NCBI GenBank assembly: GCA_002437405.1
Contig: DJPO01000006.1
Coordinates: 6,207-70,206, forward strand
Direction: 5' to 3'
DNA length: 64,000 nucleotides
From: Opitutia bacterium UBA6410
GTDB lineage: Bacteria; Verrucomicrobiota; Verrucomicrobiia; Opitutales; Intestinicryptomonadaceae
Within the stretch, counting starts at the first letter, position 1. Each line of letters opens with the position of its first letter. The notes beneath the pieces are model-generated. The model was given only the letters and a program-made list of their open reading frames with translations, searched no databases and was not told the origin of the DNA. The translations under genes were made by a program, and so were the position numbers. This document shows positions 4,787 to 31,336 of the stretch, in pieces.

Positions 4787-5155
4787 TTATCGTTTGCGGG
4801 CGGTGTGTTCGGTGTCGTCGGAGGGGTTGAATGGATAATCTGGATGGGTGGCGAATTCTATCATTGCCAGATTTGCAATATCGACAAGATGTTCTCGGTT
4901 ATGATCTCTATTATATAGAGAGAGGCGTTTGGCGATAGAGCCGACGTTGTCGTATTTTGCCTTGCCGATTTGGCTTGCGAGGCTGCCGTAGCGAAAGTAC
5001 CCCATAATCATCCGATTTTTGCGGTACTGTTCGAAGCTCGGGCAGGACTGGATTTTGGCGATTTCGTCGAGGCTCGGCGCGGGCGGGAGCGGCTCAAAGA
5101 TGCCCGCTTGGGCGAGCAGTCTTTCGCGCAGGAAGTCGTGGGTTGTCTTAGGCAT
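4787..5155 (-). CDS. Hypothetical phage protein, possibly all-alpha NTP-pyrophosphohydrolase-like
   Basis: Last gene of the early arm. The start MPKTTHDF at 5155 overlaps the methylase stop. The pattern RYGS...KYD...RL..Y....NREHLVDIANLAMIEF recalls MazG/DUF1599-like helper domains. This is a weak, by-eye assignment. Confidence 0.3.
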   Translation of the reverse strand: MPKTTHDFLRERLLAQAGIFEPLPPAPSLDEIAKIQSCPSFEQYRKNRMIMGYFRYGSLASQIGKAKYDNVGSIAKRLSLYNRDHNREHLVDIANLAMIEFATHPDYPFNPSDDTEHTARKR

Positions 5156-6416
5156 AACGGGCGAGCCTTTCGAGCACCCATTGGGCAACGTTGACGGTGA
5201 CGGCGTTTCCGCAGGCTTTGTAGCGCGGTCCGTCAGGGCAGGATTCGGCGGGTTTGCCCCGGTATGGAATGCGTGTCCAGTCGTCGGGGAAGCCCTGCAA
5301 ACGCTCGCACTCTCGGGGCGTGAGGCGGCGGACTCCGAAGCCGTTGGCTACTCCGTGGACGCCCACGGTATTGAGCGTGTACGAAACGCCCTGTTGCGCT
5401 CCCACGCCGTTGCCGCCGTTGTGGTCTTGGCGACCGATGATATTTTCTGCGATACAGACGGCGTCGGGATTGAGCACAAGCGGCAGGTTTCCGCCGCCCG
5501 TGCCGCAGTGCGATGTGAGTGTGGGCGAGTGCGTTTTTTGTTCGACGCGCCCGTCGTGCGCGTGATTTTCGAACAGAAGCGGCGTTTGTTTATTATAGCT
5601 GTGCGAGAGTGCGGCTGTGAGGGTTGGGACGTCGCTGCGGGCGGTCGGAGAACTTTCGCTTATAACGAGGGTGCTCCCGCCGCCTTTGGATTCTCCGCCG
5701 ACTCGCAATGTTGCGGCATTGCGCGAGCGATTGTAGACTCCAATGCCGTTGTTAGCAAAGGCGGTAACGTCTTGCCCCTGCGCTGTGCCCGCCGCAGAAT
5801 GCCCGCGCAGGCAGTCGGGCTCAAAAAGTATTTCTGGTCGGCAGAGGCATCCAAGACGGCCGACAAGGTAGATTCGACGGCGTCTTTGCGGGACTCCGAA
5901 AAACCGCGAATCGAGTATCCGATAAAAAACGCCGAAGTCGCCTTCGCCTCTCGCGCGGACACAGCCGACACCGCCGAATTTTTGCGGCTCGATTGTCCAA
6001 CCAGTAAATTCGGAGAGGATTCGGGCGAAGTCGCGCCCGCCGTTTGACGAGAGTACTCCGGGTACGTTTTCCCATACGATGTATTCCGCGCCGAGTTCGC
6101 GGGCGACACGCATTTGTTCGAGGAAGAGAGAACTTCTGTTTCCGTCGAAGCCGCGCTGTCTGCCTGCGACTGAGAAGTCTTGGCACGGTGAGCCGCCGAC
6201 AACGATATCGATTTTTTTGAGTCCTGTTTTTTCATAAAATGTCCTTTTGTTGATGGTGCGAATATCGTCGAAAATCGGGGTATTAAAAAAGCGGTGTGTG
6301 AGCACCGCCTTGGGGAATTGGTCGATTTCGCAATGGGCTACGACTTCGAAGCCCGCGCGTCGGGCGGCGAGCGAAAAACCGCCGATGCCCGAAAATAAGT
6401 CGAGTACGGTCTTCAT
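5148..6416 (-). CDS. DNA (cytosine-5)-methyltransferase, orphan
   Basis: C5-MTase motifs: DLFSGIGGF (I), GGSPCQDFSVAG (IV), ENVPG (VI), QRRRRIYLVG (VIII), GNAVTVNV (X). Confidence 0.93.
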   Translation of the reverse strand: MKTVLDLFSGIGGFSLAARRAGFEVVAHCEIDQFPKAVLTHRFFNTPIFDDIRTINKRTFYEKTGLKKIDIVVGGSPCQDFSVAGRQRGFDGNRSSLFLEQMRVARELGAEYIVWENVPGVLSSNGGRDFARILSEFTGWTIEPQKFGGVGCVRARGEGDFGVFYRILDSRFFGVPQRRRRIYLVGRLGCLCRPEILFEPDCLRGHSAAGTAQGQDVTAFANNGIGVYNRSRNAATLRVGGESKGGGSTLVISESSPTARSDVPTLTAALSHSYNKQTPLLFENHAHDGRVEQKTHSPTLTSHCGTGGGNLPLVLNPDAVCIAENIIGRQDHNGGNGVGAQQGVSYTLNTVGVHGVANGFGVRRLTPRECERLQGFPDDWTRIPYRGKPAESCPDGPRYKACGNAVTVNVAQWVLERLARYA

Positions 6417-7721: not shown

Positions 7722-7939
7722 TTTTTGCCCTCCTCGACGATGATAAAATTGTACTTTTCGGCGACATAGCGTGCCCGCGCGTAGCTGTCGTAATTACCCC
7801 AAGTTTGTGCACCGTTGAGCGTCCGAAATTTCCAGCCGCCGTCGTCCGACTCGAAAATACGGACAGAACACGGAGCGTCGGGATTGTTTTTGACGATCTT
7901 ATCGAGCACACCTGAAATTATTTGTTTTATGCGTAGCAT
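7718..7939 (-). CDS. Hypothetical small early protein
   Basis: 73-aa ORF that overlaps the MuB-like stop by 13 nt, in the same operon. Confidence 0.5.
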   Translation of the reverse strand: MLRIKQIISGVLDKIVKNNPDAPCSVRIFESDDGGWKFRTLNGAQTWGNYDSYARARYVAEKYNFIIVEEGKK

Positions 7940-9030
7940 TCGAGTGCCTTTCTCGTGTTGTCGATTGCCTTTAAAATGCCAGCATCTGTCGTGGGCAAAA
8001 CGTTGAAAAAGTCCTCTGTCGTGATTTCGCGCTTGGAGGCGATCGCAAGCCTCGCTGCGTTTTGCAGGGCGTTGAGTACCACCCGCAAACGTCCTTTTTG
8101 TGCGGCAAGTTTGCGCATTATCGGAAGCATAGCCTTACGCTGTGCGGCATCGCGAAAGCCCGTCGCCTTGGCGAACGCGATTAAATCGGAATCACTCGGG
8201 CGGTCGGGAAGAAACAGAATCGACTCTTCCCCACCCGCGCGACCGACAAGCTGTTCGAAGTAGCCCGCATCTTTGCCGAACGCCACGCGACGCAGGGAAC
8301 TTTCACCCGTAGCTTCATCAACGAAAATCAGCACAATCGAGCACTTTGTAGCGTCCTGTAATGCCTGCAAAAATCCGAAGAGCGGCTGGTTGAGTTTTTT
8401 CTTGGGATCATACATACGTTGCGCGTTATCGAAGATAAAGCAGTTGCGCGGCTTCACGTTTTTGATGATTTCGCGGCGGAGTCTCGCACCCGAAAAATCG
8501 GCGCGGCAACTCGGAATGACCTCTCCGATAATCATCGAAAGCTCGCAAATGCTCGGTACTGTCGGACTTTCGAGGTAATAGACGTCAGGATGCGTTAGAG
8601 CGTAGAAACGCGCGGCATAGGTTTTCTGTGCGCCCGTTGTGCCGCAGACCATCAGCCATTTGCAGACGTTTGTTTCGGGGCGGATTGCATCGATTGCGTC
8701 GCGGATTTCACGGACGGTCTCAGTCTCGACGTACGGAATCGCGCCACCGATTGTACCACCTTCTGCGATGCGTTTTGCATCGCCTGCGATTTCGGCGAGC
8801 TTCTCCATATCTACCTGAAATTTGCCGAGTTTTTTGTTGAAACGCCGCCCCGAAAAGAGCTGGTAGAACCAGTCTTTGGAGTAGCGGAACTTGCCGTCGA
8901 ACTGGGCGGCTATGCGCTGTTCGCTGCCGTCACAGTGTGTGTTGCAAAATTCCGCGAGGGTGAGCACGTGCGCCTGCGCCTCGGCGGGATAGTCTTTGAT
9001 TGCGTTTTTGATTTCGTCTATGTTTTTCAT
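7927..9030 (-). CDS. MuB/TniB-like AAA+ transposition ATPase (deviant P-loop)
   Basis: 367 aa, immediately downstream of the transposase. The Walker A-like motif is CGTTGAQKT, the Walker B-like motif is CFIFDNAQ, and a sensor-like segment is SIVLIFVDE. Confidence 0.7.
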   Translation of the reverse strand: MKNIDEIKNAIKDYPAEAQAHVLTLAEFCNTHCDGSEQRIAAQFDGKFRYSKDWFYQLFSGRRFNKKLGKFQVDMEKLAEIAGDAKRIAEGGTIGGAIPYVETETVREIRDAIDAIRPETNVCKWLMVCGTTGAQKTYAARFYALTHPDVYYLESPTVPSICELSMIIGEVIPSCRADFSGARLRREIIKNVKPRNCFIFDNAQRMYDPKKKLNQPLFGFLQALQDATKCSIVLIFVDEATGESSLRRVAFGKDAGYFEQLVGRAGGEESILFLPDRPSDSDLIAFAKATGFRDAAQRKAMLPIMRKLAAQKGRLRVVLNALQNAARLAIASKREITTEDFFNVLPTTDAGILKAIDNTRKALECYA

Positions 9031-9048: not shown

Positions 9049-11127
9049 TTAAAATTCGTCGGAGTCTTCCAGTGCCCTCGCTGCGGCGGCTATGGCCGCG
9101 CGGCGTGCCGTGCCGATTTTGCGGGCGCGTTTCGAGGTCTCGACGCGGGCAATTTGCGTGTCGGCTTCGGTTTTACGGATTTTTCTTGCGAGTTTTGCCG
9201 CCTCGCCCAGAACACCGCTGTTGTGTTCGCGCATTGCGGCAAGTTCGGCGGCCTTGGCGGGCATAAGCGGCGTGAGCACCGCACGGGCTTCGTTATTGCG
9301 CTTTGCGGCGGCTTCTGCGGCGCGTTTGATTGCGTCGGAGTCGAGCATATTCACGCGGCGGACGCGCTCGCAGGCGCAGATGTGGCGGCCTTCGTATGTG
9401 AGGTGAACGACGGATAGGTCGTCGGCAAAGTAACAGAGCATTTTTTTGCCCGTGTATTTTTCAATGATGTCGTCGGACGGCGACTTGAAGGTGAGGTTTT
9501 CCTGAATGCGCTCGCACTTGTGAATTTTGAGCGACTTTGCCGTAAACGTGCAGCCGCCGTTTGTGATGGCGAACTTCCACACTTGTTTTAGCGCGAGCAG
9601 GTGGCAGTATTGGCGCGGGTCGGGTCGCCAGAAGTCGATTCCCTTGGCAAGTCGGTTCATTCTTTCCAGCGGACTTTCGAGGCGTTCCCAGATTTCGATT
9701 TGCGAAAGCTCATCATCGCTTAATTGGTCGAGCTCCGCCTTTGTGTGGACACGGTCGAACTTGTCCCTGCGCCATTCGGTTTTGACCTCGAACCCCTGCA
9801 AATTATGGTCGGTACGCTTGCGGAGCGCGTCGAGGGCTTCGATAATAAGGTCGCAGATGTCCTCGAAGCGCGGGTGCGGTAGGAGCAGTTTGTCGACGAT
9901 TTCCTCGCGTGAGCCCGCCTTACGCAGAAGTTCCCTTGCGTAGGAAAGCGCGTATTTTGTCTGCGCGGGCATATTGTCGTAGCGGTTGCCGCTGCTGCCG
10001 TCGGAGAGCGCAAGCTGCTCCTGAAACGGGCGGAAAAACACTTCAATCCACGACTTGCACCATGGCTTGCCGCCGCCCTCCTTGAAGCCGCCCTTCAAAA
10101 ACGCGTCGTGCAGAGTGCCGCAACGCTTTATGATTATGCGGTCGCGGAACGTCTGTTTGAGGGCGAGTTCGTCGGCCTCCGAAAGCGTGGCGGCGGCGTT
10201 TTCGATTTGGAACGTCACGGGATACGGCGGCAGTCCGCGTTGGGCGACGATGTTTAAAATCAGCTGTTTTACGTCTTCGCTCGCGATGCCGATTACGGAG
10301 TCGTCCTCCTTGCGCTTGGCGCGGGGCTTTACGATGTGCGCGATGTCGCAACCCGTGGCGACGTCGAATGCGAAGACCGCCAGCGGATAGCCGAACTGGC
10401 GTTTGAGCCCCTTTTCGGCGATTGTGCAGATTTTGTCGATGCGCACGTCGTCGAATGCAATCCACTCCATAAAGCGCAGTTGCGATTTGTCGCGCAGAAC
10501 CATTGCGGGCGCGGACGAATGCGCCGCGAAAACGCCCTGCCGCGCTCCGTCGAGCAGGTATTTGCTGCGGGGCTTTATGCGTTGCAGGTTGCCCAAGCTC
10601 CAGCCGTCGGGCAGTTCCCTGTCGCCGCCCATCAGCCCCGGAACGGGGCGGCCGGTGTTGCGCGCCCACTCGTATTTTGTGCCGTATCCGGGAATCGGCT
10701 CGCCCTTGCGGAAAAGGTTTATCAGCTGGCGGCGGGCGGCGTGGCACGGGGTCTTGCGCGAGCCGCGCAGAAGCAGCTCCCTGAACCATTCCACGAACGC
10801 GGGCGGAAGCCCCTCTTTGTTGCCGCGCCAGTTGGGGCGCAGCACGCGCCAGTCACCGCTCTTGGAGAATTCGGAATAGAGCGCGTAGAGGCGTTTGTAG
10901 CTCCACCCCTTTGCGCTCTCGGCCTCCTTGCGGTAGGCTATCGCCATACACGCCTTGTTGGGGCTTTCGGAGAGTATGATTTCGCGCATAGCCTCCAGCC
11001 TATCCAAAACAAGGTTGCGGATTTCGAGTTTCAATGAAAGCAGCTCCTCGCGGGCGGCTTCGGTGCATTGAACGAAGTCGCAACTGCGGATGAGTTCCGC
11101 CTTGGTCAGCTGAATGCCGCGTTCCAT
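9049..11127 (-). CDS. MuA-like DDE transposase
   Basis: 692 aa starting from ATG 11127 (MERGIQLTKAEL...). It has an rve-like core region and lies between a DUF3102-like gene and a MuB-like gene. The ORF track's Arg-rich 229-aa N-terminal extension (to 11817) is rejected. Confidence 0.8.
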   Translation of the reverse strand: MERGIQLTKAELIRSCDFVQCTEAAREELLSLKLEIRNLVLDRLEAMREIILSESPNKACMAIAYRKEAESAKGWSYKRLYALYSEFSKSGDWRVLRPNWRGNKEGLPPAFVEWFRELLLRGSRKTPCHAARRQLINLFRKGEPIPGYGTKYEWARNTGRPVPGLMGGDRELPDGWSLGNLQRIKPRSKYLLDGARQGVFAAHSSAPAMVLRDKSQLRFMEWIAFDDVRIDKICTIAEKGLKRQFGYPLAVFAFDVATGCDIAHIVKPRAKRKEDDSVIGIASEDVKQLILNIVAQRGLPPYPVTFQIENAAATLSEADELALKQTFRDRIIIKRCGTLHDAFLKGGFKEGGGKPWCKSWIEVFFRPFQEQLALSDGSSGNRYDNMPAQTKYALSYARELLRKAGSREEIVDKLLLPHPRFEDICDLIIEALDALRKRTDHNLQGFEVKTEWRRDKFDRVHTKAELDQLSDDELSQIEIWERLESPLERMNRLAKGIDFWRPDPRQYCHLLALKQVWKFAITNGGCTFTAKSLKIHKCERIQENLTFKSPSDDIIEKYTGKKMLCYFADDLSVVHLTYEGRHICACERVRRVNMLDSDAIKRAAEAAAKRNNEARAVLTPLMPAKAAELAAMREHNSGVLGEAAKLARKIRKTEADTQIARVETSKRARKIGTARRAAIAAAARALEDSDEF

Positions 11128-12338: not shown

Positions 12339-12848
12339 TTATTTGGTTGAAATTGGTGTGAAAAAATTTTTCAGAATAGCCGTAATATGTTTGAATTTGT
12401 AGAGTTTGTGTTTTGCGCGCTGGGAGCGGTCGCTTCCGTTGCGGCCGCCGTATGCTCGGTATATTTCGGGGTCAAGAATCTTGACGCGCAAAAGCCCCTC
12501 GTCAGAATTTCCCTTGCAAACGTAATCACCAGTCGCGGCGGGAAATGCGTCGTCCTCGATTTGACAAATTCTCGCAATTTCGATATTTTCGTTTCCGAAT
12601 GCTTTTTCCCCATTGATGAAAAGCAGAACTGCCACTTTTTGCCCATCAGTAGACAACTTCCAATTTGCCTTCACTCCCGACAACGGGTTGCCGTTTTTAT
12701 CGACGACCGATACCGTGAGGAGCTCAAAAAACATAAGAAAATCGCCGTTAAAACACAGTGTGGACATACGTTCTTCTGCGACATCCCACCGTATATTTGA
12801 AATCGAAATGTCTACACCGAGTGGCGAAAAAATGCCCCAAACCGCCAT
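12339..12848 (-). CDS. Hypothetical early protein (Ig/carboxypeptidase-regulatory-like beta segment)
   Basis: 169 aa. The ATG overlaps the stop of the Ner-like gene (TAATG). The segment VSVVDKNGNPLSGVKANW looks like a beta-sandwich motif. A 137-aa antisense ORF (12387-12800) competes for this region. Confidence 0.5.
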   Translation of the reverse strand: MAVWGIFSPLGVDISISNIRWDVAEERMSTLCFNGDFLMFFELLTVSVVDKNGNPLSGVKANWKLSTDGQKVAVLLFINGEKAFGNENIEIARICQIEDDAFPAATGDYVCKGNSDEGLLRVKILDPEIYRAYGGRNGSDRSQRAKHKLYKFKHITAILKNFFTPISTK

Positions 12849-13060
12849 TACTTAGCCCTCCTGCGGCGGACGGGTTTGGGCGGCAGCGGTATCATGCCGT
12901 TGCACAGTTGCAGGATTCGCAGCGACAGGCTCTTTGATTTTCGAACCCCGTTGACGACGTAGCAGACGTGCTCAACGGTTCGATTCAATGCGCGGGCAGC
13001 GTCCGCTTGCGTTATTCCGCGTTCCGCCATTTTGCGTTTAATAATCGTATCTTTTGCCAT
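12848..13060 (-). CDS. Ner/Nlp-like small HTH regulator, first gene of the early operon
   Basis: 70 aa with the segment RGITQADAARALNRTVEHVCYVVNG. It is divergent from the repressor gene across a 68-nt AT-rich region. Confidence 0.6.
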   Translation of the reverse strand: MAKDTIIKRKMAERGITQADAARALNRTVEHVCYVVNGVRKSKSLSLRILQLCNGMIPLPPKPVRRRRAK

Positions 13061-13096
13061 TTTTAGATTGCGGTTTTAAATTCAATTTTTTAATTT

Positions 13097-13110
13097 ATTA
13101 ACTCGTTAAT
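13097..13110. promoter_or_regulatory. Candidate operator in the divergent repressor/early promoter region
   Basis: Perfect inverted repeat ATTAAC-tc-GTTAAT, 19 nt upstream of repressor ATG 13129. TAGAAT (13120-13125) is -10-like. Confidence 0.35.
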
Positions 13111-13128
13111 GCTAAAAAGTAGAATTAT

Positions 13129-13479
13129 ATGCAAGAAAAAAGTGCTAAAAAATCGAATTTTTTTCACGACCGCCTGCGCCAGCTTTTAGAATTGAGCCCC
13201 AAAACGCAGAAGGAAATCGCGAGAGAATTAGAGATGGGAGAGAGCTCCATTGTCTATTACAAGGCGGGGAAAGGGCTTCCAAAATCACACGAACTATATC
13301 GTATGTCGAAATACTTCGGCTGTTCGATGGAGTGGCTTTTGATGGGCGAGGATGATGAGGGCGCACCCGATTTGTCAAACAACGCGTGGAAAACGCGGGC
13401 TTTAATTGCTGAAAAACGAATAGAAGACCTTAAAACCGCTCTGCAAGAAGCGATCTTTGCTGTAATCAAAAAATTTTAG
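13129..13479 (+). CDS. XRE/cI-type prophage repressor
   Basis: 116 aa. The HTH is KTQKEIARELEMGESSIVYYKAGKGLP, followed by a C-terminal helix. It is divergent from the early operon. Confidence 0.7.
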   Translation: MQEKSAKKSNFFHDRLRQLLELSPKTQKEIARELEMGESSIVYYKAGKGLPKSHELYRMSKYFGCSMEWLLMGEDDEGAPDLSNNAWKTRALIAEKRIEDLKTALQEAIFAVIKKF

Positions 13480-13646
13480 CCAAAATATTAACGTGTTATA
13501 CCTTAAAACCCACGAACGCCCAATTTTACTGGGTTTGCGGGGATTTAAACAAAAAATCGGGGTAAAAAGAGTTAATATTTAGCAATGCAACTATTTGACA
13601 ATCAACAACCGAATTTTTGCAACGTTGCAGAAATCGAAAGGACGAA

Positions 13647-13913
13647 ATGAACGAAAATATCCATTTGGGGCGGGTGATCGATGAGACCGAAAGCTTTGTA
13701 GACATCGAACTTTGCGGGCACGACGTGCGAACCCTGCTTGCAGTCCACGCCAGCCAATGCTACGACATGATCGCCCCCGAAATCCGCGAAAAAATCGCCG
13801 ACGTTTTGTCCGCATACATGCGCGGCGACGTGTCTGGAGCGTGCCTAACCGCGCGGGTTTACAAAAACGTCTACGCCGCCGCCAACTCCCGCCCACCGGA
13901 AGAGGAAAAATAA
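13647..13913 (+). CDS. Hypothetical protein
   Basis: 88 aa from ATG 13647 (MNENIHLG), with an AAAGGA SD upstream. The ORF track starts at 13617. Confidence 0.45.
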   Translation: MNENIHLGRVIDETESFVDIELCGHDVRTLLAVHASQCYDMIAPEIREKIADVLSAYMRGDVSGACLTARVYKNVYAAANSRPPEEEK

Positions 13914-13938
13914 TCTGCAACAAAACGCTTTACAATGG

Positions 13939-13947
13939 TGTTATAAT
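13939..13947 (+). promoter_or_regulatory. Extended -10 promoter (TGtTATAAT) of the ParA-like cassette
   Basis: TGTTATAAT at 13939-13947. SD AAAGGA is at 13969-13974 and the ATG at 13980. Confidence 0.5.
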
Positions 13948-13979
13948 GCTCAGAATTCAACAACCTTGAAAGGATTTTT

Positions 13980-14993
13980 ATGGTAAAGAAATATTGTATT
14001 TGGAATAATAAAGGCGGAGTGGGAAAGACGTTTTTATCTTATCTCATAGCGACTGAGTATGCAAAACTTCACCCAGAAGAAGACGTTATTGTCGTCGATA
14101 TGTGTCCTCAATCAAACATATCTGAAATGTTATTAGGTGGGGATGGGAAAGGTCAAGCAAACCTTGAAAAGCTGTTTGACGAGGGGCTAACCATTGCCAA
14201 GTATATCGAAAATAGATATAAGAAAGGCAAAGATTCTCTTTTGGGAACTGAAACATCGTTCTTTGTAAATGTTCGGGAATTCAACAAAAAATTACCGACA
14301 AACTTAATTCTTGTCCCCGGTGATATCAATTTGGATATATGTTCCATTTTGATTTCTGAATGGGGTAATTCCTCGTTAAGACTGGCTTGGAAAAAGAGTA
14401 GATTTGTTCTGAATGAACTACTTCAAAGCTATATTCAAAATTCGAACCAAGATAGAAAAAAGACAATCTTCATTGATTGTAACCCTAGCTTCTCGCCCTA
14501 CACGGAACTTGCAATAGTCGCTTCGGATAGATTGATTGTCCCTTGTACTGCAGATCACGCATCTATTCGAGGTCTTTCTAATGTGTTCCGTCTTTTGTAT
14601 GAGTTCAATTCAAATGGCGACGATATTATCTCTTTCGCGGAAAAAGCAAAAAATGAGAACATTGTCCTCCCCAAGCTATTTAGGATTATATTGAACAAAT
14701 CGCGTTCACACGACAAAAATGCGTCGAAAGCGTTTTTAGCAATAAAAGATTCCATGGCAAAAAAGATGAAAGCGTTGCGAAAACAAAATCCTCAATGGTT
14801 TGTCGATGAAACGAACGATATTCCCAATATAAAAGATGGGAATACGCTTGCCGCCGTGCTCAACTATGAAGGTGCATTGCTATCAAACGTAACAGTGGGA
14901 AAACATTCCGTTTATGGGAAACCCGTACAAATAGATGAGCGACAAAAACGAGCCCTAATGAAAGGAATTTCAGATCTTGTCGCTACGTTATAA
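13980..14993 (+). CDS. Orphan ParA/Soj/MinD-superfamily ATPase (AT-rich moron)
   Basis: Deviant Walker A NNKGGVGKT. The segments DMCPQSN and IFIDCNPSFSPYTELAIVASDRLIVPCTADHASIRGL are typical of ParA. There is an extra C-terminal region of about 100 aa. The gene is visibly AT-richer than its neighbours. Confidence 0.8.
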   Translation: MVKKYCIWNNKGGVGKTFLSYLIATEYAKLHPEEDVIVVDMCPQSNISEMLLGGDGKGQANLEKLFDEGLTIAKYIENRYKKGKDSLLGTETSFFVNVREFNKKLPTNLILVPGDINLDICSILISEWGNSSLRLAWKKSRFVLNELLQSYIQNSNQDRKKTIFIDCNPSFSPYTELAIVASDRLIVPCTADHASIRGLSNVFRLLYEFNSNGDDIISFAEKAKNENIVLPKLFRIILNKSRSHDKNASKAFLAIKDSMAKKMKALRKQNPQWFVDETNDIPNIKDGNTLAAVLNYEGALLSNVTVGKHSVYGKPVQIDERQKRALMKGISDLVATL

Positions 14994-15007
14994 AGATGCC
15001 GAAAACG

Positions 15008-15038
15008 ACTCCCAAGTATAACTTGGGAGTTTTTTTTG
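15008..15038 (+). terminator. Rho-independent terminator of the ParA-like cassette
   Basis: ACTCCCAAGT (15008-15017), ATA loop, ACTTGGGAGT (15021-15030), then TTTTTTT. Confidence 0.8.
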
Positions 15039-15120
15039 TACCCAGACGCGGCTATTTTTTCAAAAAAATGTCCCGAAAAAACTTTTTATGTAATGGGCGT
15101 TAACGCTGTAAACCCGCGTT

Positions 15121-15149
15121 TTGACTGGATTTGCGGTTTGTGATATTGT
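15121..15149 (+). promoter_or_regulatory. Candidate sigma70-type promoter of the rightward (late/middle) arm
   Basis: TTGACT (15121-15126), 17-nt spacer, TATTGT (15144-15149). The ATG lies 9 nt downstream, a leaderless-type geometry. Confidence 0.4.
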
Positions 15150-15158
15150 GGGTGCGTT

Positions 15159-15923
15159 ATGACAAACAACGCACAAGACAGTCAATCACAAAGCGGTAAT
15201 CTCGGTATTTGCCACAAAATCTATGCGTTTGCGACCGCGCGTATAAATCCCGATTGGATATCGTTTAAAGCTTGGATGCTTGGCGGTGTCGTACGGGTTG
15301 TCAAAATCGCCATTGCGGATTTGCCAGCATTGTCCGAGCAAATTGGCGACGCGCTTGCGTCGGGCGATTATGTAATTTCTTTGGGCGGATTGAAATATCA
15401 GACTACTGAAAAAATCCTTGGTGAAATCCGCCGCGACTTTGACTCATATACTGCTGGATCGGGCGTCAGTGACGCGCAAGCCGTCCGTGGTGGGTCTGCG
15501 GTTTTGCCGCAGTCCGAATCTCCGACGGGAGACGCCAAAACCAAAGCGTCCGCGCCGCAAGGCAATGCCTCTGCCGCGCGTCAAATTTCCGTGGAAGAGC
15601 GTGCGCACCCGCGTTTCCCGCGCAGCTATGTTCGCCGCAACTCGAAAATCGCCAAAATTGCCGCCGAATCAATCGGTTCGGCGTTGCGCGAGGAGCTTGA
15701 GCCCGTGCTCGACGCGCTCGACGACATCGGCGCGATGTTGTCCGAGTTGCTCGCGGTTCGCGGAATCGACCGCACCCCGAAACAGCCGCGCGGTTGGCGA
15801 AAATGTACCGTAGAAAACCCGCTCGGCGGCGTAATTCGCACAAAGCACGGCAGAACGTCGGTAGTTGTCGGCGTTCGCAAGGTGGCGAAATTTCAACCCA
15901 AAACAAAAGGAAAATCGAAATGA
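15159..15923 (+). CDS. Hypothetical protein (two domains joined by a disordered linker, basic C-terminus)
   Basis: 254-aa ORF, first gene of the rightward arm. I recognise no motif. Confidence 0.5.
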   Translation: MTNNAQDSQSQSGNLGICHKIYAFATARINPDWISFKAWMLGGVVRVVKIAIADLPALSEQIGDALASGDYVISLGGLKYQTTEKILGEIRRDFDSYTAGSGVSDAQAVRGGSAVLPQSESPTGDAKTKASAPQGNASAARQISVEERAHPRFPRSYVRRNSKIAKIAAESIGSALREELEPVLDALDDIGAMLSELLAVRGIDRTPKQPRGWRKCTVENPLGGVIRTKHGRTSVVVGVRKVAKFQPKTKGKSK

Positions 15924-23320: not shown

Positions 23321-24205
23321 ATGAACCCAGTTTTTCCATATTCGGGCGGCAAACGCAGATTGTTAAAATACATTCTGCCTGTGATACCCGAACACTCCAC
23401 GTACATTGAGCCGTTTGCGGGCGGGCTTGCCGTGTTTTTGGCGAAGTCCCGCGCGAAGGTCGAAGTTATCAACGACCTCAACGCCGAAGTTTCGGGCTTT
23501 TATCTTTATGTCCGCGAACATCTCGAAAGCCTGCTTGCCGAAATGGATTGGTATTTGCACTCGGTGGATATTTTCAACAGGCTTCGCGACTCGCGCGGGC
23601 TTACGGAGCTTCAAAAAGTGGCGCGGTGGTATTTGCTCAAAGTTTCGTCGTTTTCGGGTTTCGGCGGCTATTACGCCCGGGATTCGCGCGGCTATCGCGG
23701 GTTTTCGCGCGACAGGCACGTGCCCGCAATCCGCGCTCTGCACGAGCGGTTCAAAGGCGTTTACATCGAGCAGCGCGACTGGCAGCAGGTGGTCGATTTC
23801 TACGACTCCGAAAACGCGTTTGTGTATTTTGACCCGCCGTATTGCACGGGCGACAGCGGCACTTATGAGGCGTTTTCGCCCGAGGATATGGAGATTCTGC
23901 GAAACAGGCTCTACACGCTCAAAGGCAAGTGGCTTCTCTCCTGCGACGGCTCGGACATTTGCCGCGAAATCTTCGGCGACTTCGCCAAAGTCGAAATCCC
24001 CTTTAAATATTCGGCGGGTACGGGCGACCGCGTGCGCCCCGAGAAGTCGGAAATGATCGTCGCCTGCGACGCCCTTGCGGAGTCTTTGCAGAACGCCTGT
24101 AAAGGCGTCAAAACCCCGATTTTATCGGCAGATGATACCCCCCCCACCCACCCACCCGAGTGCAAATATTCCTACAATGCCTCTGCGCGGCGTAGGGCGG
24201 CATAA
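23321..24205 (+). CDS. N6-adenine DNA methyltransferase (Dam/D12 class), orphan
   Basis: N-terminal segment FPYSGGKRRLLKYILPVIP, AdoMet motif EPFAGGLAVFL and catalytic motif VYFDPPY. Confidence 0.9.
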   Translation: MNPVFPYSGGKRRLLKYILPVIPEHSTYIEPFAGGLAVFLAKSRAKVEVINDLNAEVSGFYLYVREHLESLLAEMDWYLHSVDIFNRLRDSRGLTELQKVARWYLLKVSSFSGFGGYYARDSRGYRGFSRDRHVPAIRALHERFKGVYIEQRDWQQVVDFYDSENAFVYFDPPYCTGDSGTYEAFSPEDMEILRNRLYTLKGKWLLSCDGSDICREIFGDFAKVEIPFKYSAGTGDRVRPEKSEMIVACDALAESLQNACKGVKTPILSADDTPPTHPPECKYSYNASARRRAA

Positions 24206-28894: not shown

Positions 28895-30475
28895 ATGAAT
28901 TTGGAAGAAAAAGAAATCAAACAGTTCGAGGAGTTCGACGAAGTGTCGCCCGAATCCTCGCAAAATCTGATAACCGACAAAGGTCGGTTTTCACTCGGGA
29001 CATTGTACAATGCGGTTGTATCGTATGCCACCGAACTGATAAATGCGGCCGTGCAATCGGCGACAACTTCGGCTACCGTTTCCGCCCAAAATGCGGAGTC
29101 GGCTAAAAACGCCGCCGAGCTTGCCAAGACGCAAGCGCAGGCGATTAGCGACCCCGAAAATAGGATTGGTAATCTGCAAATTCTAAAGCAAAATTGCGGT
29201 CGATTGTACTTAAACGGCGGATACGCTACTACGAATTGCAAACCGACGTTCGGCGCGGCTCAATCTTTGATATTCACCTACGAAGTTTCCGAATCAGAGC
29301 TTTATTCGGGCTATTGGGCGATTATCGGGAATTGTTTTGACCAAATAGTAGGACAAACGGGTATTTCGTTTGCGAAATTAAGCACTTACGCAAGAGTCGG
29401 TTTCAACTGGGGCGGTACGAGCGATACCAGAACGTTGAAAACCGTGCAAATTGCGCAATTCGCCGACGGCAAGCCGCACGCGTGGGCGTTGGTTTGCGGC
29501 AAAAACGCGACCAACGGATTTTTGAAACTCTACCGCGACGGCGTTTTGATAATCTCGGAAACTTCGCTTGCACTATTTGAGGATTTCACACCCCAAAACG
29601 GTTTTTATTTCGGCAGGGGACAATCGACGGCATCCAATGTCGTTCCCGCAAAAGGCAGGCTTTCGCGCGTTGCGTTTTTCAACTTCGACGTTTCCGAATC
29701 CGACGCATCTTATACACTCGCAGATTATCAATCGGGTAAGTCAATTCCGCCTACTCTCAACTTAATGGCGCAGGACATATTGACGCTCAAGGAATCCGAC
29801 ATTACGAATCTAACATATTTTACCAATCGAGCGGACGCAGTTCAGTACGCTGGAGTTTGGGAAGGGGATTATTTTGTTTTGAAGAATACGGCAGATACAA
29901 CTGTTGATACTTCAATGAAACAAACTTTTTACATCAATCCTATTTATACGCTTGCTGCAACTATCCCCGCTGGGGCTTTGGTTGAAGTATCTTTTGAAGA
30001 ATGGATTTTTAATACAGATTATTTTACTACAACTCCAACCTTACCAACAGACCCTTCGGCTCAACGTTTTTACGGTTGGTTAACAGTTGGGGTAGCAAGA
30101 GGCAACACAGAGCACGGTAAAACTATAACAGATAAAAAATTTAGATTTTACGCGCGCGAAGCCTCAACGGTTTTACATTTTGCAAACTATGCGTTTGGAC
30201 TGAGAAGTAATATTTCAGTAGGTGATACAATCCCAGCAAATACGGCTTTCTGCAAAATAAAGGGTCTTAAAATCAAAGTAAATGGAACATATCTAAACCT
30301 CGAGAGCTACACAATCGCCCGCAACACTACGACGCGGCTTATCAAAGACTTGTCGGCTGGCGGATATGACGCGACGATTACGGGCGAAATCCGCGGCGAT
30401 ATGGACAGGCGCGTCGAGGTTTTCGTAGACGAGCTCAAAACACAAATTGTACAATCATCATCAACAACGGATTAA
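28895..30475 (+). CDS. Tail fibre / receptor-binding protein with LamG (concanavalin-like) domain
   Basis: The N-terminal fibre-type coil is SATTSATVSAQNAESAKNAAELAKTQAQAI. The LamG-like block is WAIIGN...HAWALVCG...LKLYRDGVLI...GRLSRVAFFNFDVSE. The distal part is AT-richer. Confidence 0.6.
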   Translation: MNLEEKEIKQFEEFDEVSPESSQNLITDKGRFSLGTLYNAVVSYATELINAAVQSATTSATVSAQNAESAKNAAELAKTQAQAISDPENRIGNLQILKQNCGRLYLNGGYATTNCKPTFGAAQSLIFTYEVSESELYSGYWAIIGNCFDQIVGQTGISFAKLSTYARVGFNWGGTSDTRTLKTVQIAQFADGKPHAWALVCGKNATNGFLKLYRDGVLIISETSLALFEDFTPQNGFYFGRGQSTASNVVPAKGRLSRVAFFNFDVSESDASYTLADYQSGKSIPPTLNLMAQDILTLKESDITNLTYFTNRADAVQYAGVWEGDYFVLKNTADTTVDTSMKQTFYINPIYTLAATIPAGALVEVSFEEWIFNTDYFTTTPTLPTDPSAQRFYGWLTVGVARGNTEHGKTITDKKFRFYAREASTVLHFANYAFGLRSNISVGDTIPANTAFCKIKGLKIKVNGTYLNLESYTIARNTTTRLIKDLSAGGYDATITGEIRGDMDRRVEVFVDELKTQIVQSSSTTD

Positions 30476-30480
30476 AAAAT

Positions 30481-30768
30481 ATGGCAAAAAAAATACTACT
30501 TAAATCAAAAGACGGCGTTGAGGTATCCTTTGCTTTGACGCAAATTATACTCAAAGGCGAGACAACGATTAAATTCCCCGACGCGGAAGAATGGTCGGAC
30601 GGGGCATCAAAAACTTATGTCTACGGCGACAGTTATATCGCAAAAATCCCCGACGAGCTCTTTGCACAGGTTGCGGCGGCTCTCATGCCCGCTCCTGCGA
30701 CCGAAAACCCGACGGAGAGCGACGCGGAAACCGAAACCGCTTCGGACGAACCTGAAACTGAGGAATAA
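30481..30768 (+). CDS. Hypothetical small protein with acidic tail
   Basis: 95-aa ORF whose C-terminus is ENPTESDAETETASDEPETEE. Confidence 0.4.
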   Translation: MAKKILLKSKDGVEVSFALTQIILKGETTIKFPDAEEWSDGASKTYVYGDSYIAKIPDELFAQVAAALMPAPATENPTESDAETETASDEPETEE

Positions 30769-30770
30769 AT

Positions 30771-31148
30771 ATGGACGACAAAAACGATATGGCGACGTTC
30801 TTGGGGTACGAAACCGTCGCTTTGACAAAACCCGTCGGCGACAAAAAAACCGTCAAAGTAAAATGCCTGCCCGTGCGGGCTTTCGCTGAATACGCCGCGC
30901 TCATCGAAGACGAATCGGCTCTCGTCGAAATGTTCACGGGGCTTACGCCGGACGAGGTAGACGCGCTTGCAATCGACGACTTTGTGGCAATCTTGAAGAA
31001 AGGGCACGGGCTGAATTTTGTCCCTTTTTCGGATTGGCTGAAGCGCAAAGTGGAAGCCAAGAAAATGATTGCCCAAGCGTACGGAATCCGACTTCCGAAC
31101 GAATCCCCAGCTGGAAACGGCTCGCCGGACTCGTCGCAGGAATTGTAG
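30771..31148 (+). CDS. Tail assembly chaperone (gpG-like)
   Basis: 125 aa, immediately upstream of the tape measure. An ORF overlaps it in the -1 frame. Confidence 0.6.
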   Translation: MDDKNDMATFLGYETVALTKPVGDKKTVKVKCLPVRAFAEYAALIEDESALVEMFTGLTPDEVDALAIDDFVAILKKGHGLNFVPFSDWLKRKVEAKKMIAQAYGIRLPNESPAGNGSPDSSQEL

Positions 31149-31336
31149 TCGAAAGCGGAATGAAATGGGACGATGTTCTCGATCTTACGCCGCTTCGATT
31201 GCAATCCGTCTGCAAGGCGATTGAAAAACGTAGAATAATCGACAAACTCGGCGTGTTCGACGCCCAAGCTGCGCTCATAGACGAAAAAGCCCTCAATCGT
31301 CTAAAATCCGAATTGAGGGTTTTTGAGGAGGAGTAA
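30771..31336 (+). CDS. Predicted -1 frameshift fusion product (gpGT-like)
   Basis: The -1 frame stays open to 31336. A candidate slippery heptamer C_CCT_TTT lies at 31022-31028, in the zero-frame register. Confidence 0.4.

Follow-up and report, generated by a model that had tools for sequence, protein, structure and literature searches.

A ParA-like gene in the control region of a Mu-like prophage

The DNA considered here is a 64,000-nucleotide stretch of contig DJPO01000006.1 from Opitutia bacterium UBA6410 (hereafter the window, at its full length), which contains a Mu-like prophage carrying an AT-rich, single-gene cassette for a ParA-like ATPase, a distant relative of the anti-phage defence protein GiPD474. 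The gene is an open reading frame (ORF) at 13980-14993 on the plus strand, and its product of 337 amino acids, which begins MVKKYCIWNNKGGVGKTF, matches the Pfam families AAA_31 (E 1.5e-18) and CbiA as well as PHROG 164, "ParA-like partition protein" (E 1.4e-41); every score against the NCBIfam ParA/MinD/BcsQ models falls far under the cut-off. An initial annotation, made from the DNA letters, had described a 337-residue ATPase of the ParA/MinD superfamily with the motif NNKGGVGKT, and the ORF, the Pfam and PHROG matches and a fold model all agree with that description.

Mu-type transposition genes, namely a B-like ATPase (7927-9030, phrog_296) and a transposase (9049-11127, phrog_310), both on the minus strand and assigned by PHROG, identify the element as a transposable prophage, in which Phage_Mu_Gam and Portal_Mu are also present. 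The prophage is organized around a central divergent control region, with an early operon running leftward and the lytic genes rightward, a layout similar to that of phage BcepMu. The putative prophage repressor, a helix-turn-helix (HTH) protein of 116 amino acids (13129-13479, plus strand; Pfam HTH_19, 3.5e-9, and HTH_3, 5.5e-8; PHROG transcriptional repressor/regulator families), is encoded divergently from the early transposition operon, and sister prophages have an HTH_3 gene of 104-107 amino acids at its place. The ParA-like gene lies within this divergent control region, 500 bp past the repressor candidate, with which it shares the strand, and ahead of the lytic genes, which is the position between immunity region and late genes that the initial annotation had assigned to it. 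The last backbone gene before the cassette is orf98 (13617-13913, plus strand, 54.5% GC (guanine plus cytosine)), which gene callers start at 13647 to give 88 amino acids (orf88), and the first gene past it is orf254 (15159-15923, plus strand), for which 203 homologues were found.

The ParA-like ORF has a GC content of 38.1%, and 36.7% at third codon positions (GC3), compared with about 56% GC and about 70% GC3 in the late terminase and portal genes and 55-57% GC in the phage backbone; the bin at 14-15 kb is the GC minimum of the full window. A contrast of 40 against 60% had been guessed by eye, close to these computed values. Comparison with the empty site of a sister prophage delimits the inserted AT-rich cassette to 13913-15054 (1,142 bp, in place of 73 bp), essentially the interval 13914-15040 (37.8% GC) that had been proposed from the letters. 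A 22-nt imperfect inverted repeat flanking the cassette (13846-13867 and 15033-15054, 73% complementary) is probably a chance occurrence, 42 such pairs being present in 4 kb.

Several predicted expression signals accompany the gene. A Shine-Dalgarno-like AAGGA (13970-13974, plus strand) stands 5 nt before the ATG, and an extended -10-like element, TGTTATAAT (TGnTATAAT; 13939-13947, plus strand), lies upstream of it, the promoter call being based on consensus matching only. A TTTACA at 13929-13934 is located just 7 nt from this -10 and therefore cannot serve as its -35 element; a promoter scan offers the alternative TTTACA-16-CAGAAT at 13929-13956. Downstream of the gene, an intrinsic terminator (15007-15038, plus strand) is formed by an 11-bp stem (15007-15031) with a 3-nt loop and a run of eight T, and its stability (dG -20.5 kcal/mol, z = -4.74) was equalled in 0 of 200 shuffles. 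A hairpin with the same stem is kept in the cassette of a sister phage (L170) that holds an 87% homologue of the window protein. From its position, the terminator would insulate the downstream lytic genes from cassette transcription. The Shine-Dalgarno sequence and the strong terminator had both been noted before and are borne out here.

Homology to the anti-phage protein GiPD474

GiPD474 is encoded by a single gene, gipd474 (STM474_RS13505, WP_000368620.1), in the Gifsy-1 immunity region of S. Typhimurium 4/74, and was reported in November 2025 to restrict phage Felix O1 (FO1) (Bosma, Noireaux and Bowden, Appl Environ Microbiol 2025, PMC12724215). When expressed from a low-copy plasmid, it lowered plating by about 5 logs for T4 and about 5.5 logs for Alf5 (Salmonella LT2 and E. 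coli K-12) and was without effect on T7, SP6, LPST153, Jbel, VpaE1 and S16, while its transcription in the lysogen exceeded 500 transcripts per million (PMC12724215). The protein was assigned a ParA/MinD/Soj-like fold, AAA_31 and a GGVGKT motif at residues 29-34, with its C-terminal region drawn as an "unknown domain", and homologues selected at no less than 70% identity and 70% coverage adjoin cII/cro/repressor modules in Enterobacteriaceae; action after adsorption was proposed as a possibility and the mechanism was left open (PMC12724215). Literature searches found no follow-up work on GiPD474, and a mention of ParA in the Menshen paper proved to be an analogy only.

The sequence of GiPD474 was located through the 40-nt lambda-Red knockout primer arms given in Table S2 of that study (PMC12724215), which are found in loci L122-L126 with 40/40 and 39/39 bases identical. 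These arms bracket the ORF L124:7941-9026, of 361 amino acids, in which GGVGKT falls exactly at residues 29-34, and the two matches together identify this ORF as GiPD474; it is preceded by repressor, cro-like and cII-like genes. The same five loci had come up independently as relatives of the window protein.

The window protein aligns with GiPD474 collinearly from end to end (46% identity and 67% positives over 341 columns, E 5e-110), and this full-length homology places it as a distant member of a validated single-gene defence family. Judged by sequence, the finding is thus a far relative of a known kind of defence gene and not a system of an undescribed kind. The initial annotation had proposed a defence moron of undescribed function, of which the defence moron gains support from this homology and from the variable slot described below, and the novelty falls away; its statement that no single-gene ParA-type anti-phage system had been described is contradicted by GiPD474 itself (PMC12724215). 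Both proteins are products of single genes, combine a WNNKGGVGKTF P-loop with AAA_31 and a ParA/MinD/Soj-like fold, and have in common the motifs DxCPQ, DCNPSF, PCTAD, NxSR and KDGNTL, and both genes are AT-rich and lie in a prophage immunity region, near regulators and on the strand of the repressor. The window protein differs in lacking an N-terminal extension of about 20 residues (337 against 361 amino acids), and the carriers differ as well: GiPD474 belongs to a lambdoid Gifsy prophage of Enterobacteriaceae, whereas the window gene belongs to a Mu-like transposable prophage of an uncultured bacterium of about 55% GC.

A variable accessory slot in sister prophages

Sister prophages were collected with orf254 as the anchor, and loci L182-L194 were examined; they come from metagenomes, human gut samples among them. 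One of them, L194, represents the empty site, in which an orf88 homologue is followed by 177 bp and then by the orf254 homologue. The blastn junctions are clear-cut, with window 13483-13912 corresponding to L194 4391-4822 and window 15055-15205 to L194 4896-5047. The empty site also has a terminator-like hairpin with a T-run between orf88 and orf254.

Other sister prophages carry different genes in this slot. A SocA_Panacea domain gene with a 127-aa ORF is found in L182 and L183, an HNH gene with a 318-aa ORF in L184, and a 319-aa ORF in L191. L185 contains a full-length PD-T7-4 (E 3.8e-80) with two further ORFs, L187 combines PD-T7-4 (E 1e-41) with a YLATT-domain protein, and the short contig L188 carries a YLATT-domain gene alone. 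PD-T7-4, to use its PADLOC name, is said to have been introduced as a single-gene defence system by Vassallo et al. in 2022. Like the ParA-like gene, it is a single-gene, AT-rich cargo of the identical slot in L185 and L187; the protein itself (DUF4145) is unrelated, so the link between the two is positional only. Every one of these cargos has a GC content of 32-44% on a backbone of 55-57%. With cargos that differ between sisters or are missing, the slot is a variable accessory and defence hotspot. The initial annotation had suggested asking whether homologues recur at the same slot in related Mu-like prophages, and the 87% homologue in L170 does occupy it, with defence genes in other sisters. 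The unannotated cargos (the 318- and 319-aa ORFs, the YLATT protein and the partners of PD-T7-4) are candidate new systems in their own right.

The promoter-like element is a property of the slot. Sequence similarity of the window to L182 runs to 13947, through TGTTATAAT, at 92.9% identity, and the cargo of L182 is the Panacea-domain gene; the element was therefore not brought in by the ParA-like gene. The earlier description of a promoter owned by the cassette accordingly stands as to the presence of the element and fails as to its ownership.

Taken by the features that mark a moron, the cassette is inserted between otherwise adjacent genes (L194 junctions at 13912/15055), deviates in composition from its surroundings (38.1% against 55-57% GC; GC3 36.7 against about 70), and ends in a strong terminator, its promoter-like element being common to a sister phage with another cargo. 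These observations support its classification as a single-gene moron in a Mu-like prophage and not a partition system.

Fold and active site

The AlphaFold2 model of the window protein (predicted local distance difference test 86.7, predicted template-modelling (TM) score 0.89) resembles ParA-type ATPases over its full length. The best Foldseek matches in the PDB are McdA (6nop), ParA (8ray), Soj (2bek, 1wcv, 6iub) and Borrelia PF-32, with E values of about 1e-10, about 337 aligned columns, target-normalized TM scores of 0.72-0.78 and sequence identities of 12-20%. Residues 1-163 of Soj make up 64% of that protein, so a target-normalized TM score of 0.77 means that the C-terminal third superposes too. 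In the model, the ParA fold covers the entire protein and leaves no separate C-terminal domain, and about 85 extra residues appear as insertions, comprising helices at about 55-105, a segment at 208-230 and a beta-hairpin at 307-318. The extra C-terminal domain of about 100 residues that the initial annotation had described is thereby replaced by insertions within a single fold. Alignment to the Pfam models, and to B. subtilis Soj by profile-profile comparison, runs out at residues of about 204-250, in the case of Soj at about residue 204, and this loss of alignment accounts for the impression of a foreign C-terminal domain. Mapping C-terminal residues, such as a DNA-binding arginine, onto B. 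subtilis Soj was ruled out because the profile alignment ends there. A structural search of BFVD with the window protein was uninformative.

The nucleotide-binding site retains most of the elements of ParA proteins. The deviant Walker A motif NNKGGVGKT (residues 9-17; 14004-14030, plus strand), identified by sequence and alignment, contains the signature Lys11 and the P-loop Lys16 (K11-GGVG-K16-T), and NNKGGVGK[TS] occurs in 80 of 83 clusters of ParA-like homologues. The Walker B region IFIDCNPS (residues 163-170; 14466-14489, plus strand) aligns with "iiiDcPPS" of Soj/ParA, and D166, C167, N168, P169 and S170 are invariant in alignment A1. With Lys11, Lys16, Asp40 and the Walker B Asp166 in place, the P-loop for ATP binding is intact.

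The family departs from canonical ParA proteins in switch I. The Walker A' motif reads D40-M-C42-P-Q44 (14097-14111, plus strand), with Cys42 where canonical ParA/Soj proteins have their second, catalytic Asp. In alignments, "vvdmCPQ" of the family falls opposite "lvdlDPQ" of wild-type T. thermophilus Soj (1wcv), "lvdlAPQ" of 2bek and "yvdcDPQ" of 3pg5. D-x-C-P-Q is present in all 80 clusters with a recognised Walker A, the motif having played no part in retrieving the loci, and it is present in GiPD474 as well. Switch I, earlier taken to be of ParA type, is hence non-canonical. The D44A exchange in Soj reportedly kills hydrolysis and traps an ATP-bound sandwich dimer, a result attributed to work by Leonard et al. 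in EMBO J in 2005, and the equivalent exchanges are said to be D40A (B. subtilis Soj) and D38A (McdA). Because the acidic residue needed for hydrolysis by ParA/Soj/MinD is an invariant Cys, the family would by analogy be expected to bind ATP, dimerize and turn over slowly.

Conservation in alignment A1 extends along the full length of the protein and includes WNNKGGVGKTF, D40-x-C42-P-Q-x-N-x-S-E, a Gly-rich LGGxGxG loop, AWKKSR, DCNPSF, PCTAD-AS-R, N-x-S-R242 and KDGNTL. The last of these (residues 285-290; 14832-14849, plus strand) is specific to the family and invariant. Four Cys residues are likewise invariant, namely C42 (14103-14105), C121, C167 and C189, and may form a metal or redox site.

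Among solved structures, Soj of T. thermophilus (1wcv/2bek) and H. pylori (6iub), ParA (8ray) and McdA (6nop) have in common with the window protein the fold, the signature Lys, the first Walker A' Asp and Walker B. The window protein differs from them in its low identity, in about 85 extra residues within insertions, in the Cys in place of the second Asp and in lacking a ParB/McdB-type partner and a centromere. The closest solved structure by sequence is DIP2308 of C. diphtheriae (3pg5; E 7e-8 to 1e-8), which is 361 amino acids long and has a similar insertion after switch I; it differs in keeping the canonical D-x-D-P-Q ("vdcDPQ"), and its alignment ends at about residue 200. As a structural-genomics protein of unknown function, it provides no functional transfer.

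Distribution of the family

Homologues of the window protein are numerous and widely distributed, contrary to its earlier designation as an orphan. A word-indexed search returned 1,667 of them, and almost all of the best 120 are full-length proteins of about 330-360 amino acids; these 120 are 44-100% identical to it and come from very diverse bacteria. Pattern scans located at least 562 loci in species-representative genomes of Proteobacteria, Verrucomicrobia, Planctomycetes, Acidobacteria, Bdellovibrionales and Firmicutes and in two archaeal metagenome-assembled genomes (MAGs). The full-length archaeal members, on MAG contigs L039 (Methanoperedenaceae) and L055 (Hodarchaeota), have 38-41% identity. 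An alignment-based scan of IMG/VR added 92 viral loci; scans of that collection with one query sequence at a time, for the ParA-like protein, orf254 and the repressor, gave no matches. When a profile was run exhaustively against 1.84 billion representatives, 140 matched at E <= 1e-30 and 581 with E <= 1e-10, and the small number at the stricter threshold indicates a compact subfamily that is sharply apart from generic ParA. The longer distant members (450-600 amino acids) contain no recognizable fused domain that would suggest an effector.

Genomic neighbours were surveyed with one representative for each of 83 clusters at 80% identity. At the level of BLAST, the clusters have no neighbour family in common, and the best one reaches 6 of 83; the highest-ranking Pfam neighbour families contain no recurrent partner either, which agrees with a single-gene system, the HEPN-coupled subclade described below being excepted. 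The gene has a lower GC content than its flanks in 76 of the 83 clusters (median difference -8.6 points, Wilcoxon p = 2e-14; control neighbour genes +2.2). In one group of loci (L174-L177:10001-11011), a 70% homologue separates the GpA-type large terminase gene of an unrelated phage from its portal gene, an unusual moron position within the packaging module.

Genomic contexts and alternative explanations

The best surviving alternative, though an improbable one, is an addiction, toxin-antitoxin-like or anti-plasmid module, acting as a selfish stabilizer or aimed at plasmids or phage-plasmids. Several contexts point in this direction. ColRNAI/Rop plasmids of 4.5-6 kb carry the gene as cargo together with DUF6530 and DUF2251 genes (L179, which is pEC25-4 of 4,991 bp, and about 100 similar plasmids), and the slot of L182 houses the Panacea antitoxin-domain module. 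In four viral clusters, a HEPN_RiboL-PSP gene of about 200 amino acids with an RHSFAHG motif, an RNase of a kind typical of toxins, overlaps the ParA-like gene or starts 0-4 bp after it (L157:309-2084, L159:3884-5570, L160:7914-9646 and L169:7827-9637), and these clusters look like a two-gene variant of the family. IS1595-family (ISXO2-like) transposase genes also lie directly beside the ParA-like gene in about five clusters (L059, L085 and about three more), and this adjacency may represent one route of its mobility. Nevertheless, most members, including the window gene, are without a candidate toxin or antitoxin partner, and GiPD474 has direct anti-phage activity (PMC12724215). Toxin-antitoxin-like behaviour would in addition be compatible with defence by abortive infection, which makes this explanation partly a sub-case of the defence reading.

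An accessory role in lysogeny control, in which the ATPase would tune the repressor/antirepressor switch, prophage induction or replication of the host (compare the action of Soj on DnaA/Spo0A), is somewhat less probable still. In its favour, several temperate elements that are unrelated to one another have the gene immediately after a CI-type or HTH regulator and on the strand of that regulator. Such an arrangement occurs in Pseudomonas phage phi297, in Klebsiella phage ST11-VIM1phi8.2 and in a Salmonella lambdoid fragment; the gene, present in 71 of 5,426 complete genomes, also directly follows the repressor in E. coli CPS-53-like prophages, two of which were inspected. CI-type regulators (HTH_3 with Peptidase_S24) lie just upstream in phage-borne clusters. 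A test with a home-made HTH profile, however, found an upstream HTH gene on the same strand at 39 of 41 and 18 of 22 loci in two viral clusters and at 1 of 3 in a third, and none in the other 14 of 17 viral clusters or in any of the 66 genome clusters (ORF background 3%). Location downstream of a repressor was consequently dropped as a defining feature of the family, the rule being real but not universal. The homologue between terminase and portal is far from regulators, and the sister prophages with an empty site or other cargo indicate that the gene is dispensable for the phage life cycle. Outside any prophage, GiPD474 alone on a plasmid protects LT2 and E. coli (PMC12724215). Immunity regions are, moreover, established homes of exclusion genes, and the recurrent place beside repressors fits defence as well: the genomic logic of the window gene, just downstream of the repressor on its strand and insulated from the lytic genes, is that of lambda rexAB. 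Those exclusion genes of the lambda immunity region lie on the repressor's strand, are expressed in the lysogen and are dispensable for the phage. The likeness is one of arrangement, as there is no relationship in sequence or fold, and RexAB consists of two proteins, one of them a membrane component.

A partition or positioning ATPase, or the remnant of one, serving the phage genome, a plasmid-like form or other cargo, is very unlikely. The ParA/MinD fold with its deviant Walker A motif, the name "ParA-like partition protein" given to homologues by PHROG and by record annotators, and the occurrence of homologues on plasmids, including small ColE1-type and IncY ones, would all fit such a function. 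The initial annotation had remarked on the absence of ParB and of a centromere array and had named ParB-paired homologues as the pattern to be expected of a partition remnant. ParB is absent from the 25 commonest Pfam neighbour families of the 83 clusters; in the window, no ParB gene was found among the ORFs (ORF list and Pfam search), and no iterated, tandem or centromere-like repeat array within 12.0-16.5 kb. The IncY/P1-type plasmid pBJ114-96 (L178) has its own ParB 7 kb away from the ParA-like gene, which is located past icd, the antirepressors and an HTH gene. At a size of 5 kb, the ColRNAI/Rop plasmids are maintained at high copy number and can do without active partition. The window element integrates by transposition, the sister phages either lack the gene or carry defence genes instead, and the acidic residue on which the ATPase cycle of a partition motor depends is a Cys throughout the family: the signature lysine of canonical ParA is retained, and the second Walker A' Asp is absent.

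Least likely of all is a role in lysogenic conversion, through interference with host ParABS/MinCDE or with cell division, to the benefit of host or phage and independently of defence. This alternative was raised by the initial annotation and is suggested by structural similarity to MinD, Soj and McdA. Identity to those proteins is just 12-20% in structural alignments, however, hosts as distant as archaea and Planctomycetes argue against dependence on one machinery, and GiPD474 protects both Salmonella and E. coli against particular phages (PMC12724215).

The defence reading and a proposed mechanism

The window gene is best interpreted as a GiPD474-type anti-phage defence gene, expressed in the lysogen as a moron in a hotspot of Mu-like prophages, with a probability put at 0.72. 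This interpretation is the best supported one because it combines full-length homology to GiPD474 with a slot that holds PD-T7-4, Panacea or HNH genes, or nothing, in sister prophages.

Several observations weigh against it. The nearest protein with a phage-resistance phenotype is GiPD474, and at 46% identity the window protein lies below the 70% family cut-off of its authors and outside the set that they surveyed; functional conservation over this distance, like expression of the gene in the lysogen, is presumed from sequence. PADLOC-DB v2.0.0 (2023), a library older than the description of GiPD474, gave 0 families at E <= 0.1 for the ParA-like protein and no match for its window neighbours either. 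Promoter-like matches near the cassette are not enriched (8 found against 5.1 +/- 2.7 in shuffles). Many neighbours of the chromosomal homologues are unrelated housekeeping genes and do not form recognizable defence islands. With respect to mechanism, Cys42 could support other chemistry, the steps of slow hydrolysis and DNA binding are drawn by analogy with Soj mutants, and Arg242 resembles the DNA-binding Arg of Soj by pattern only, the profile alignment ending at about residue 204.

Under the defence interpretation, transcription in the lysogen would arise by read-through from the repressor/orf98 operon, from the slot promoter, or from both, with the terminator preventing it from running on into the lytic genes. 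The protein may act as an ATP-dependent dimer switch whose slow hydrolysis, attributable to Cys42, would give a long-lived ATP-bound state, in place of a cargo-positioning motor. The insertions peculiar to the family would in that state probably let it bind DNA, the nucleoid or a specific component of the phage, and the development of particular phages would be blocked after DNA entry. The coupling of the same ATPase to a HEPN RNase in one subclade suggests that the ATPase may be the sensing or regulating module. This specific ATP-locked-switch mechanism, built by analogy, is put forward tentatively and is doubtful in its particulars.

Other features of the prophage

Operator-like repeats are found at 13078-13169, between the divergent gene for a 70-aa regulator (12848-13060, minus strand) and the 116-aa HTH gene. 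One pair, of 27 nt, is direct (13110/13143), and another, of 15 nt, is inverted (13078/13146).

Two orphan DNA methyltransferases, one of the C5 type and one of the D12/Dam type, are encoded in the prophage at 5148-6416 (minus strand) and 23321-24205 (plus strand), with no restriction partner seen, and may provide self-protection against restriction. A second low-GC stretch occurs at 28895-31336 (GC 0.46-0.47); its ORFs of 526, 95 and 125 amino acids have no PHROG match and may constitute either an accessory locus or divergent tail genes. No tRNAs were detected in the 64-kb window.

Significance for the GiPD474 family

GiPD474 has been described only in Enterobacteriaceae, and the family as delineated here reaches Mu-like phages, IncY/P1-type plasmids, 5-kb ColE1 plasmids, the chromosomes of many phyla and some archaea. 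To the existing description are added an Asp-to-Cys change throughout the family, its spread over many phyla, the HEPN variants, the carriage by small plasmids and phage-plasmids, the AT-richness relative to flanks and the hotspot. The last of these, which separates the repressor operon from the lytic genes in Mu-like prophages from metagenomes including those of the human gut, is a previously undescribed defence hotspot.

The family-wide loss of the acidic hydrolysis residue offers a testable handle on mechanism, and the translationally coupled HEPN subclade hints at the ATPase as a sensor. On a broader and more speculative view, GiPD474 and its ParA-like relatives might be pan-prokaryotic immune ATPases, in which the Asp-to-Cys change would have made a motor into an ATP-locked, infection-sensing switch acting on DNA or the nucleoid, with some members signalling to a HEPN RNase. 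If true, the ATP-locked switch would represent a mechanistically new kind of defence, for which the window copy would be a compact and phylogenetically distant test case.

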